Of a stretch of DNA of 64,000 bases, positions 7,294-16,571 are shown piece by piece. The DNA is from Escherichia coli (GTDB lineage Bacteria; Pseudomonadota; Gammaproteobacteria; Enterobacterales; Enterobacteriaceae), in NCBI RefSeq assembly GCF_024502345.1, contig NZ_JALDNN010000001.1; one strand, given 5' to 3'. The notes below the pieces were generated by a model that was not told the DNA's origin, made no database searches, and was given only the letters and a program-made list of their open reading frames with translations. Each line of letters begins with the position of its first letter. Within the stretch, counting starts at the first letter, position 1. A program made the position numbers and the translations under genes.

Positions 7294-8982
7294 ATGAGTG
7301 GTGAAAAAAAGGCGAAAGGCTGGCGGTTCTATGGTCTTGTAGGTTTTGGCGCAATAGCACTGCTTTCCGCTGGCGTCTGGGCGTTGCAATATGCTGGCAG
7401 TGGGCCAGAAAAAACGTTGTCGCCGCTGGTGGTGCACAACAATCTGCAAATCGATCTCAATGAGCCGGACCTCTTTCTCGACAGCGACTCTCTGAGCCAG
7501 CTTCCCAAAGATCTCCTCACCATTCCGTTTCTCCACGATGTTCTGAGCGAAGATTTCGTTTTCTATTATCAGAATCATGTCGATCGTCTGGGCATTGAAG
7601 GCAGCATTCGTCGCATTGTCTATGAACACGATCTCACGCTGAAAGATAAGCTCTTTTCGTCACTCTTAGATCAGCCCGCGCAGGCGGCGCTATGGCACGA
7701 TAAACAAGGCCATCTTTCACACTACATGGTGCTGATCCAGCGCAGTGGTTTAAGCAAACTGCTGGAGCCATTGTTGTTTGCCGCTACCAGCGACAGCCAG
7801 TTAAGCAAAACGGAAATCAGTAGCATCAAGATAAATAGTGAAACTATTCCTGTTTATCAGTTGCGCTATAACGGCAATAACGCCCTGATGTTCGCGACAT
7901 ATCAGGACAAGATGCTGGTGTTTTCCAGCACGGACATGCTATTTAAAGATGACCAGCAGGATACCGAAGCCACGGCGATCGCAAGTGATTTGTTGAGCGG
8001 CAAAAAACGCTGGCAAGCCAGCTTTGGCCTGGAAGCGCGTGCTGCCGAAAAAACGCCAGTACGCCTGCGCATCGTGGCCAGCGCCAGGTTGCTGGGTTTT
8101 GGCTACCAGCGGTTAATGCCTTCTTTTGCTGGCGTACGCTTCGAAATGGGTAACGACGGCTGGCACAGTTTTGTGGCGTTAAATGATGAATCCGCCAGCG
8201 TAGATGCCAGTTTCGATTTTACGCCGGTCTGGAACAGTATGCCTGCCGGGGCCAGCTTCTGTGTGGCGGTGCCGTATTCACACGGTATTGCCGAAGAGAT
8301 GCTTTCGCACATCAGCCAGGAAAACGACAAGTTGAATGGGGCGTTGGACGGTGCCGCGGGGCTGTGCTGGTATGAAGACTCAAAATTGCAAACCCCGCTG
8401 TTTGTCGGTCAGTTTGATGGCACTGCCGAACAGGCGCAATTGCCAGGGAAACTGTTTACGCAAAATATTGGTGCGCACGAAAGCAAAGCGCCAGAAGGTG
8501 TTTTGCCGGTAAGCCAGACTCAGCAGGGCGAAGCGCAAATCTGGCGTCGCGAAGTGAGTTCCCGATACGGTCAGTATCCGAAAGCGCAGGCGGCGCAACC
8601 CGATCAATTAATGTCGGATTATTTTTTCCGCGTGTCGCTGGCGATGCAAAACAAAACGCTGCTTTTCTCCCTCGATGACACGCTGGTTAATAACGCCCTG
8701 CAAACACTGAATAAAACCCGCCCGGCAATGGTGGATGTAATACCCACTGATGGCATCGTTCCGCTCTATATCAATCCACAAGGCGTGGCGAAACTGCTGC
8801 GTAACGAAACGTTGACCAGTCTGCCGAAGAATCTCGAACCGGTTTTTTATAACGCCGCACAAACTTTATTAATGCCGAAGCTGGACGCTTTATCTCAACA
8901 ACCGCGTTATGTCATGAAGCTGGCCCAGATGGAACCCGGTGCCGCCTGGCAGTGGCTACCCATAACCTGGCAGCCGCTATGA
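7294..8982 (+). CDS. yfaA: DUF2138-family protein of the alpha-2-macroglobulin cluster
   Basis: Position after gyrA; 562 aa from the internal Met [12 protein letters not shown] with an N-terminal hydrophobic segment. Confidence 0.75.
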
Positions 8983-9602
8983 GGCACTGGCTGCTGGCGC
9001 TGATTTGCTGGCTGTGTTGTGTTGTTGCCCATAGCGAAATGCTGAATGTCGAACAATCCGGGCTGTTTCGCGCCTGGTTTGTACGCATTGCACAAGAACA
9101 GCTCCGCCAGGGGCCAAGTCCACGTTGGTATCAGCAGGATTGTGCGGGCCTGGTGCGATTTGCGGCGAACGAGACGCTGAAAGTTCACGACAGTAAATGG
9201 CTAAAAAGTAACGGTTTATCTAGCCAGTATTTGCCGCCAGAGATGACGCTAACACCTGAACAGCGTCAACTGGCGCAAAACTGGAATCAGGGGAACGGGA
9301 AAACCGGCCCCTACGTGACCGCGATTAATTTGATTCAGTACAACAGCCAGTTTATTGGCCAGGACATAAACCAGGCGCTGCCTGGCGATATGATTTTTTT
9401 CGATCAGGGCGATGCCCAGCACTTAATGGTCTGGATGGGGCGTTACGTCATCTACCACACCGGAAGCGCCACGAAAACTGACAACGGAATGCGCGCAGTC
9501 AGTCTGCAACAACTTATGACATGGAAGGACACCCGATGGATACCCAACGATTCCAATCCCAATTTCATTGGCATTTATCGTTTAAATTTTCTGGCGCGAT
9601 AG
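8979..9602 (+). CDS. yfaT: DUF1175-family protein
   Basis: 207-aa ORF with ATGA overlap of the yfaA stop; signal-like N-terminus [19 protein letters not shown]. Confidence 0.75.
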
Positions 9603-15790: not shown

Positions 15791-15794
15791 TGCT

Positions 15795-16571
15795 ATGCGA
15801 AAGATTTTTCTTCCGTTGTTACTGGTGGCGCTTTCGCCTGTCGCTCACAGTGAAGGTGTGCAGGAAGTCGAGATTGACGCACCGCTCTCAGGCTGGCATC
15901 CGGCAGAGGGCGAAGATGCCAGTTTTTCACAATCGATCAATTACCCGGCGTCGTCCGTCAATATGGCAGATGATCAAAATATCTCAGCGCAGATCCACGG
16001 CAAAATAAAGAATTATGCTGCGGCGGGTAAAGTTCAGCAGGGCCGGCTGGTGGTCAACGGTGCCAGTATGCCGCAGAGAATTGAATCCGATGGTTCATTT
16101 GCACGCCCTTATATTTTCACTGAAGGCAGCAACAGCGTGCAGGTCATCAGCCCAGATGGGCAAAGCCGACAAAAAATGCAGTTTTACTCAACGCTGGGCG
16201 CTGGAGTGATTCGCGCACGTTTACGGCTGGTTCTCTCGTGGGATACGGACAATACCGACCTCGATCTTCACGTTGTCACGCCCGATGGCGAACACGCCTG
16301 GTACGGTAACACCGTGCTGAAAAACAGTGGTGCACTGGATATGGATGTCACGACGGGGTATGGACCCGAGATTTTCGCCATGCCAGCGCCAGTTCACGGG
16401 CGCTATCAGGTGTATATCAACTACTACGGCGGGCGCAGCGAAACGGAATTAACCACCGCCCAACTGACGCTGATCACCGATGAAGGATCGGTCAATGAGA
16501 AACAGGAAACATTTATTGTACCGATGCGTAATGCTGGCGAGCTGACGCTGGTGAAAAGTTTTGACTGGTGA
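15795..16571 (+). CDS. yfaP: DUF2135-family secreted protein
   Basis: 258-aa ORF with signal peptide MRKIFLPLLLVALSPVAHS, last gene of the cluster. Confidence 0.75.
   Translation: MRKIFLPLLLVALSPVAHSEGVQEVEIDAPLSGWHPAEGEDASFSQSINYPASSVNMADDQNISAQIHGKIKNYAAAGKVQQGRLVVNGASMPQRIESDGSFARPYIFTEGSNSVQVISPDGQSRQKMQFYSTLGAGVIRARLRLVLSWDTDNTDLDLHVVTPDGEHAWYGNTVLKNSGALDMDVTTGYGPEIFAMPAPVHGRYQVYINYYGGRSETELTTAQLTLITDEGSVNEKQETFIVPMRNAGELTLVKSFDW

Follow-up and report, generated by a model that had tools for sequence, protein, structure and literature searches.

The five genes yfaA-yfaT-yfaS-yfaQ-yfaP occupy positions 7294-16571 of a stretch of 64,000 nucleotides (nt) of Escherichia coli DNA (assembly GCF_024502345.1, contig NZ_JALDNN010000001.1), which as a whole is referred to below as the window. 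Sequence comparison identifies the cluster as the E. coli counterpart of the Pseudomonas aeruginosa genes magBCDEF, without magA, and its largest product YfaS as a thioester-less (Type II) alpha-2-macroglobulin, the orthologue of MagD. At this locus we observed that the genes are intact, that orthology and domain content link them to mag, that the thioester has been lost, that the bait is conserved and that selection is purifying. It is fairly probable (roughly 0.6) that the five genes form one operon for an E. coli Mag (Type II) envelope complex, which would work like its Pseudomonas orthologues. The yfa cluster, the yfaS pseudogene of K-12 (b4500) and the Pseudomonas Mag complex are all already known, and the protein families concerned take their names from the yfa cluster.

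Gene content of the operon and orthology to mag

The five genes are located in the window as follows.

7294-8982, plus strand: yfaA, ATG to TGA, 562 amino acids (aa)
8979-9602, plus strand: yfaT, ATG to TAG, 207 aa
9536-14140, plus strand: yfaS, ATG to TAA, 1534 aa
14141-15790, plus strand: yfaQ, GTG to TAA, 549 aa
15795-16571, plus strand: yfaP, ATG to TGA, 258 aa

These open reading frames (ORFs) are tightly packed and contain no internal stop codons. The ATGA at 8979-8982 is common to the stop codon of yfaA and the start codon of yfaT, yfaT shares 67 nt (9536-9602) with yfaS in a different reading frame, the TAA of yfaS is immediately adjoined by the GTG of yfaQ, and a spacer of 4 nt separates yfaQ from yfaP. 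The intact, tightly coupled five-gene operon described in a first-pass annotation of the window was thus confirmed, including its junctions. Each product has a single hydrophobic segment at its N-terminus, which in YfaT, YfaS, YfaQ and YfaP resembles a cleavable signal peptide, in agreement with the earlier statement that all five carry a signal peptide or a membrane anchor. In the Pfam search, the domains anticipated by the same annotation (A2M, DUF2138, DUF1175, DUF2300 and DUF2135) were all matched in the expected proteins. When the five proteins were compared to NCBIfam, YfaA alone was matched (PRK11410, 901 bits); the remaining scores were noise far under the cut-offs.

Our blastp analysis revealed one-to-one orthology between the yfa and mag products with 46-75% identity per protein, and the gene order and Pfam content are as in three Pseudomonas mag loci (L003, L005 and L007). 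This bears out the resemblance to the Pseudomonas mag operon that had been noticed before. The largest-cluster homologue of YfaS outside enterobacteria (P0118) is encoded in a six-gene cluster (L003), whose neighbours we take to be the roxSR and gatCAB-mreB genes of PAO1, based on Pfam content and on the PAO1 map. Since the DUF2138 protein of this cluster has 589 residues, the published length of MagB (PMC5764988), the locus was taken as P. aeruginosa magABCDEF. No ORF for magA, the second DUF2135 paralogue, was found in the 148 nt between gyrA and yfaA. Of the defining features of a Type II/Mag locus that gave a clear result here, all are present except magA.

YfaA matches DUF2138 with E = 7e-287 and is 46% identical to MagB. 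As in MagB, its N-terminal transmembrane-like helix (residues 11-35, approximately 25 residues) has no obvious cleavage site; in the AlphaFold2 model this helix is followed by a beta-rich body (predicted local distance difference test, pLDDT, 77.7). As the MagB orthologue, YfaA is predicted to anchor the macroglobulin to the inner membrane and to stabilise it. YfaT is 75% identical to MagC, matches DUF1175 (E = 1e-57) and weakly NlpC/P60, and finds the MagC crystal structure 7BK8 with E = 2e-103. It carries a predicted N-terminal signal peptide, with cleavage before E, and by its matches is a member of the DUF1175/MagC family with an NlpC/P60-like fold. MagC-type proteins are described as peptidoglycan-binding and are reported to be catalytically inactive (PMC10318531, citing Zouhir 2021, FEBS Lett). 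YfaP is a DUF2135/YfaP_C protein (DUF2135, E = 6e-17) with a signal peptide, and shows 52% identity to MagF and 40% to the paralogue MagA. The idea that YfaP, MagA and MagF are relatives of macroglobulin domains was rejected (hhalign probability 0.6%), and neither YfaA nor YfaP has sequence relatives in the PDB.

YfaS matches MG2 (E = 4e-19), A2M_BRD (E = 3e-17), A2M (E = 5e-12) and bMG10 (E = 6e-5), and is 54% identical to MagD across 1513 aligned residues. Its start codon is annotated by RefSeq/PGAP at GTG 9626, resulting in a protein of 1504 aa, which begins 30 codons late and has the hydrophobic core of the signal peptide cut off. With the start at ATG 9536, YfaS has a complete signal peptide at its N-terminus.

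9536-9649, plus strand: predicted Sec signal peptide of YfaS, residues 1-38, ending in GLANA and followed by DD

This region comprises a charged n-region, a hydrophobic core and the site ANA-DD, which aligns with AQA-ED of MagD; its sequence is identical across 15 E. coli loci, and the first 67 nt of its coding region overlap the 3' end of yfaT. A Shine-Dalgarno sequence (GGAAGGA) is located 6 nt upstream of ATG 9536, and the curated K-12 record b4500 uses the same start and extent (4605 nt). Use of the alternative ATG 9521 would yield 1539 aa, but this codon lacks a Shine-Dalgarno sequence. Downstream of ATG 9536, the other in-frame starts before residue 39 are TTG 9611 and GTG 9626, neither of which gives a signal peptide. 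Since the Shine-Dalgarno sequence, the signal peptide, the alignment with MagD and the K-12 record all favour ATG 9536, we regard the 67-nt overlap with yfaT as real. Judged by these features, ATG 9536 is the only start giving an exportable YfaS, and the RefSeq start is wrong. The E. coli macroglobulin cluster with the RefSeq start has 40,950 member sequences, and loss of the signal peptide by this error matters to anyone predicting the location of YfaS. Formally, I-A-A-C25 (residues 22-25, 9599-9610), with about seven hydrophobic residues before the Cys, fits a lipobox. Based on the alignment with MagD, cleavage by signal peptidase I after ANA38 seems more likely than a lipoprotein form.

The cluster is flanked by the following genes.

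4518-7145: gyrA, 5' flank
16846-19695: rcsC, 3' flank

In the region 16572-16845, yfaP is followed directly by rcsC, and the atoSCDAEB region of K-12 is absent from the window. Of 5426 complete E. coli genomes, 1536 share this direct yfaP-rcsC junction, among them strains of O157:H7 and O103:H2. An Rfam search of positions 7000-17000 returned no RNA family. The ribosome-binding region of yfaA (7277-7291) has the sequence ACACAAGGAAUGUGG, which presumably resembles the GGA-type binding consensus of CsrA/RsmA. In Pseudomonas, RsmA is reported to target the mag operon leader directly.

The thioester site and the bait of YfaS

Two sites in YfaS are central for its classification.

12731-12760, plus strand: degenerate thioester site, residues 1066-1075, P1066-W-G-G-V-I-N-T-G-S1075
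12083-12136, plus strand: bait motif, residues 850-867, NRSER...RPRRE

YfaS contains two Cys residues, C25 in the signal peptide and C1189, which is not conserved among relatives, and a regular-expression scan of the whole protein detected no C-x-E-Q. Such a motif scan cannot locate the ancestral thioester, and therefore the profile of a family alignment (A1, 14 YfaS-type sequences) was searched against PDB sequences. In the resulting alignment, residues 1066-1075 are located opposite P-Y-G-C-L-E-Q-T-A-S of YfhM/ECAM (PDB 4rtd), so that G1069-V-I-N1072 stands in place of C-L-E-Q. Because Cys is replaced by Gly, Glu by Ile and Gln by Asn, no thioester can form. Motif scan and profile alignment thus agree with the first-pass claim of two Cys residues and no C-x-E-Q, and the proposed thioester-less bacterial class corresponds to the Type II class of the literature. 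YfaS and YfhM are distant from each other: the family profile detects YfhM with E = 6e-12, but a phmmer search of PDB sequences with the single YfaS sequence misses it at E <= 0.001 and found complement C5 only (E = 3e-4).

Of the 120 best matches of YfaS, 73 are proteins of full length, and in these the state of the thioester site was compared. An intact G-C-V-E-Q is present in 31 of them; the two bearers that were checked (Pseudomonas citronellolis L005, 8001-12545, and Pseudomonas sp. L007, 7001-11557) are encoded in canonical six-gene mag operons. GGVEQ was found in 20 proteins, MagD included, GGV[IV]N in 19, all from Enterobacterales, and CGVEQ and GSVEQ in one each. In a neighbour-joining tree, Cys-less forms occur in at least three separate Pseudomonas sub-clades. 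Therefore, the thioester-less state appears to have been derived repeatedly within one operon-defined mag-type family, the Cys having apparently been lost several times in Pseudomonas. Comparison of these motifs places the site of the E. coli YfaS among the most decayed of the family. In the collection of papers that was searched, none reporting recurrent thioester loss in the mag-type family was found.

The sequence A850-T-N-R-S-E-R-R of YfaS corresponds to the MagD bait ANRSERG (residues 847-853), which was mutated to a tobacco etch virus (TEV) protease site in Pseudomonas (PMC5764988). In alignment A1, the residues N852, R853, S854, R856 and R863-E867 are invariant, and the motifs N-R-S-E-R and R-P-R-R-E vary little or not at all between E. 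coli and Pseudomonas. Residues 807-870 (11954-12145) show the highest conservation in YfaS, with a mean of 0.80 versus 0.63 for the whole protein, and the TED-like region is the least conserved (approximately 0.5); these figures span Enterobacterales and Pseudomonas sequences. In eukaryotic macroglobulins the bait region is the variable part, which is the opposite of the YfaS family.

Variation within E. coli and the function of the operon

In MG1655, yfaS is the pseudogene b4500, with an extent (4605 nt) equal to that of the ORF in the window, and the yfaS of K-12 EMG2 is flagged 'internal stop' in RefSeq. Base-by-base comparison revealed that the EMG2 and window sequences are colinear, with 66 substitutions and no indels. 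One substitution accounts for the pseudogene.

13637-13639, plus strand: codon W1368 of YfaS, TGG in the window and TGA in K-12

W1368* (TGG>TGA) is the only lesion making the K-12 yfaS a pseudogene. The interruption in K-12, which the first-pass annotation had mentioned, was located by this alignment, and the single ORF of about 1534 aa which it had described for the window showed no frameshift or stop upon realignment. The 71-nt K-12 haplotype around W1368* is present unchanged in 364 of the 5426 complete E. coli genomes, while the yfa locus was found at a coverage of at least 80% in 5177 of them. In genomes sampled at even steps along the similarity ranking, all five yfa genes were unflagged in 10 of 14. 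The intact operon is thus the common state in E. coli, and K-12 is the exception. Nearly all genetic work on E. coli is done in K-12, which by nature carries a nonsense mutation in yfaS; strains with an intact locus, such as the one of the window, are the right background for studying the thioester-less macroglobulin in E. coli.

Other lineages harbour other lesions. O157:H7-type strains (L008 and L011) contain Y265* (TAT>TAG) in yfaQ and are natural yfaQ nonsense mutants, strain DLL557 (L020) has an internal stop in yfaT, and yfaS is disrupted by the insertion sequences (IS) ISEc20, IS421 and IS1A in three of 30 listed genomes (H5, H10 and H19). The window is near-identical to strain C 236-04A (O125ac:H10). 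It is not identical to the best-matching assembly NZ_CP109924.1, from which it differs by 1 nt in an A-run of yfaA: at approximately 7813-7816 the window reads GGAAATC and its frame is intact, whereas NZ_CP109924.1 reads GGAATC, with one A fewer, and its yfaA is therefore annotated as frameshifted. This frameshift may be an assembly error. In the protein database we noticed many YfaS entries from E. coli in which internal stretches are deleted or duplicated in frame (P0001-P0059), for example forms lacking residues 431-900 (dozens of contigs) and one lacking residues 681-761 (one O157:H7 entry). These variants may be true recombination products or artefacts of gene calling or assembly.

Across E. 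coli phylogroups, the ratio of nonsynonymous to synonymous substitution rates (dN/dS) is 0.04-0.29 across all five genes. Together with the scattered lesions, these values indicate that the locus is under purifying selection overall, yet has been lost repeatedly in single lineages. The wide distribution of the locus, which over 95% of complete genomes contain (and yfaQ in approximately 98% of 131,610 genomes; PMC12282094), and the dN/dS values contradict the view that the cluster is a silent, dispensable and decaying remnant in E. coli, intact in the window since no lesion has occurred. Such a remnant would agree with the independent lesions in yfaS, yfaQ and yfaT, with the internally deleted YfaS variants in the database, and with the promoter scan upstream of yfaA, which revealed no sigma-70-like promoter and yielded only the gyrA terminator (7165-7182). 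It would also agree with a YfaQ-msfGFP fusion that was undetectable (PMC12282094). At the same time, a remnant would hardly be expected to be free of flagged genes in 10 of 14 evenly sampled genomes, to keep 46-75% identity with its Pseudomonas orthologues and to give a phenotype upon deletion of yfaQ (PMC12282094). We consider this view very improbable.

YfaQ is 53% identical to MagE and is its orthologue. Three of its motifs are important for the interpretation of the operon.

14318-14329, plus strand: SxxK motif S60-L-W-K63 of YfaQ, at the N-terminus of helix 59-73
15140-15142, plus strand: E334 of YfaQ, invariant in 62 of 62 family members
15698-15712, plus strand: HExxH motif H520-E-Y-L-H524 of YfaQ, in helix 512-526

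The protein consists of a signal peptide, a domain like class D beta-lactamases and penicillin-binding proteins (PBPs) at approximately 24-245, a SpoIID-like domain at approximately 256-410 and a C-terminal helical module. In Pfam, two DUF2300 matches flank SpoIID; that they are repeats is unsupported at the sequence level (BLASTP E = 7.2). The AlphaFold2 model, built on 62 diverse homologues, has a pLDDT of 94.4 and a predicted template modelling score (pTM) of 0.91. S60 and K63 are conserved in 61 of the 62 family members, the exception being a gap, and the position of S60-x-x-K63 in the secondary structure matches that in the canonical penicillin-binding fold. Further family-invariant residues at canonical positions are S108-C109 and, on a strand, K195-T196. 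In alignments to 4rwr and 5i1t, E334 coincides with the Glu in the SEM/GEM motif of SpoIID, which is the catalytic residue. In the HExxH motif, which resembles that of zinc peptidases, H520, E521 and H524 are conserved in 62 of 62 members; E536 is found in 59 and E540 in 56. Position 530, six residues past the motif, is His in 52 members and Tyr in E. coli. We found no metallopeptidase fold match for the HExxH module.

A bipartite domain model of YfaQ was already published in 2025, together with the finding that a yfaQ deletion widens the cells and groups with mutants of mepK, mepS and nlpI (PMC12282094). The same paper makes no mention of the macroglobulin, MagE, yfaS or HExxH (PMC12282094). 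In view of this work, the earlier description of the cluster as essentially uncharacterised in E. coli holds for the other genes and fails for yfaQ. Combining the three conserved motifs, one may suppose that YfaQ/MagE is a catalytically competent three-module cell-wall enzyme, with an acyl-serine domain, a SpoIID-like transglycosylase and HExxH, and that it is the working partner of the macroglobulin; we regard this as rather unlikely. Such an enzyme would process YfaS/MagD at the bait and/or repair peptidoglycan while the macroglobulin holds the attacker, a role that seems to us similarly improbable. If it were true, both types of bacterial macroglobulins would be wired to a protein with a penicillin-binding fold, and E. 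coli with an intact locus would have a non-immunity defence against peptidoglycan-targeting effectors of type VI secretion systems (T6SS), while K-12 would be without it.

The preferred reading of the operon, an envelope complex of the Mag type, is modelled on Pseudomonas. There, MagD traps protease non-covalently in vitro once its bait is cleaved, it binds MagA, MagB and MagF at 1:1, and MagB anchors and stabilises it (PMC5764988). As described in 2025, P. aeruginosa is protected by its mag operon when attacked with VgrG3 and Tae1, two T6SS effectors that target peptidoglycan (PMC12663445). Trapping, binding of MagA, MagB and MagF, dependence on MagB, binding of MagC to peptidoglycan and protection from VgrG3 and Tae1 were established in P. 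aeruginosa only (PMC5764988, PMC10318531, PMC12663445). By analogy, we infer that the E. coli proteins behave like the P. aeruginosa Mag proteins. YfaS would be exported via Sec with the help of the signal peptide starting at 9536, and the single N-terminal transmembrane helix of YfaA would hold and stabilise it at the periplasmic face of the inner membrane, with YfaP, the MagF orthologue, binding to it. An enzyme entering the periplasm would cut the exposed bait (850-867), upon which the conformation of YfaS would shift and the enzyme would be held non-covalently. YfaT, with its MagC-type inactive NlpC/P60 fold, and YfaQ, with its PBP-like and SpoIID-like domains, may link the complex to the wall. 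Overall, it would shield the periplasm and the peptidoglycan from hydrolases of foreign origin, for example proteases of the host and type VI effectors directed at peptidoglycan.

Several points weigh against this reading. E. coli is without MagA, one of the three direct MagD binders; the scan upstream of yfaA gave no sigma-70-like promoter; and about one quarter of the sampled genomes have lesions, in different genes, which shows that cells can do without the system in many settings. The highly conserved bait fits specific or endogenous cleavage better than a broad-spectrum decoy. The phenotype of the yfaQ deletion is the sole measured effect among the E. coli proteins, and the YfaQ-msfGFP fusion was undetectable (PMC12282094). 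Since this phenotype arose in K-12, in which YfaS is truncated, YfaQ acts without a full-length macroglobulin. Finally, the best documented protection in vivo in Pseudomonas is that against VgrG3, which is described not as a protease but as a lysozyme-like chitosanase acting on glycan chains (PMC12663445).

The main rival is a module for peptidoglycan maintenance or repair, in which YfaQ and YfaT would bind the sacculus or act upon it, with the macroglobulin as a scaffold or damage sensor. In that case an endogenous enzyme, possibly YfaQ with its HExxH, would cut the bait as a site of regulated processing; the bait is the most conserved segment of YfaS. Deletion of magE alters the processing of MagD in P. 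aeruginosa, and the cleavage of MagD to a 100-kDa form in vivo requires MagB (PMC5764988). However, MagE was detected in the cytoplasmic fraction, outside the complex (PMC3735191), and the trapping of protease by MagD in vitro once the bait is cut (PMC5764988) argues for a genuine trap. The fold of YfaQ with its invariant SxxK, S108, K195-T196 and E334, and the HExxH present in all 62 family members, are in line with a role in the cell wall, but the third zinc-ligand His is a Tyr in E. coli YfaQ and the enzymatic role of MagE/YfaQ is a predicted one. A function at the peptidoglycan is also consistent with the widening of K-12 cells upon yfaQ deletion despite the truncated YfaS (PMC12282094), with the protection conferred by MagD against peptidoglycan-targeting effectors including the lysozyme-like VgrG3 (PMC12663445), and with the pairing of Type I macroglobulins with PBP1c (PMC5764988). 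On balance we find such a module doubtful as an alternative, both in its general form and with the bait as a processing site; it is compatible with enzyme trapping, and the two are not mutually exclusive.

Comparison with known systems

Read as a Mag complex for enzyme trapping, the yfa operon belongs to a well-defined class. The two classes of bacterial macroglobulins were reportedly first described by Budd et al. in 2004. Type II macroglobulins have a signal peptide, lack a thioester and a lipobox, and are encoded together with accessory proteins (PMC3735191, PMC5764988). The closest known system is MagABCDEF of P. aeruginosa (PA4492-PA4487), which shares with yfa the order DUF2138, DUF1175, A2M, DUF2300 and DUF2135. 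Like YfaS, MagD has a signal peptide, no thioester Cys and the NRSER bait, and like YfaA, MagB is an anchor protein with an N-terminal transmembrane helix. The two systems differ in the thioester site, where MagD keeps G-V-E-Q and has lost the Cys alone, whereas YfaS reads G-V-I-N and has lost Cys, Glu and Gln. Further, the magC/magD junction is short in comparison to the 67-nt overlap of yfaT and yfaS, in E. coli the flanking genes are gyrA and rcsC or ato, and in Pseudomonas roxSR and gatCAB, and regulation by GacA/RsmA is known for the Pseudomonas mag operon only. Membership in a listed phage-defence system was considered and rejected, since PADLOC models matched none of the five proteins.

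With the eukaryotic alpha-2-macroglobulin and with C3, C5 and CD109, YfaS shares MG2, bait-region and A2M domains, and its family profile matches C5 and CD109 at E values of approximately 1e-7 to 1e-8. In contrast to these proteins, YfaS is without the thioester, a CUB or receptor-binding domain was not detected in it, and its bait is conserved instead of hypervariable. By analogy to Mag, it would act in the periplasm of the bacterium, within a hetero-complex anchored to the membrane.

YfaQ resembles the class D beta-lactamases, BlaR1 and MecR1 in having SxxK, S-x-x and K-T-x at canonical positions, and as in BlaR1 a domain of the penicillin-binding type is joined to an HExxH. Compared to class D enzymes and PBPs, the third residue of K-T-G is aromatic in YfaQ, and S-x-N/V reads S-C-G. 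Unlike the transmembrane sensors BlaR1 and MecR1, YfaQ is predicted to be soluble and periplasmic, with the HExxH in the C-terminal periplasmic module. The SpoIID lytic transglycosylase offers a second likeness, as the Glu of its SEM/GEM motif is aligned with the invariant E334.

The Type I macroglobulins, such as YfhM/ECAM of E. coli and SaA2M of Salmonella, share with YfaS the multiple MG domains, the bait region and the TED-like domain. They are periplasmic and associated with the inner membrane, as is predicted for YfaS. They differ in possessing CLEQ, in trapping covalently, in being lipoproteins which need no accessory complex, and in the location of their gene next to pbpC; YfaS has no CxEQ, and its gene lies between yfaT and yfaQ instead of beside pbpC. 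What the two types have in common at the level of their loci is a partner with a penicillin-binding fold, PBP1c in the case of Type I and YfaQ in the case of yfaS.

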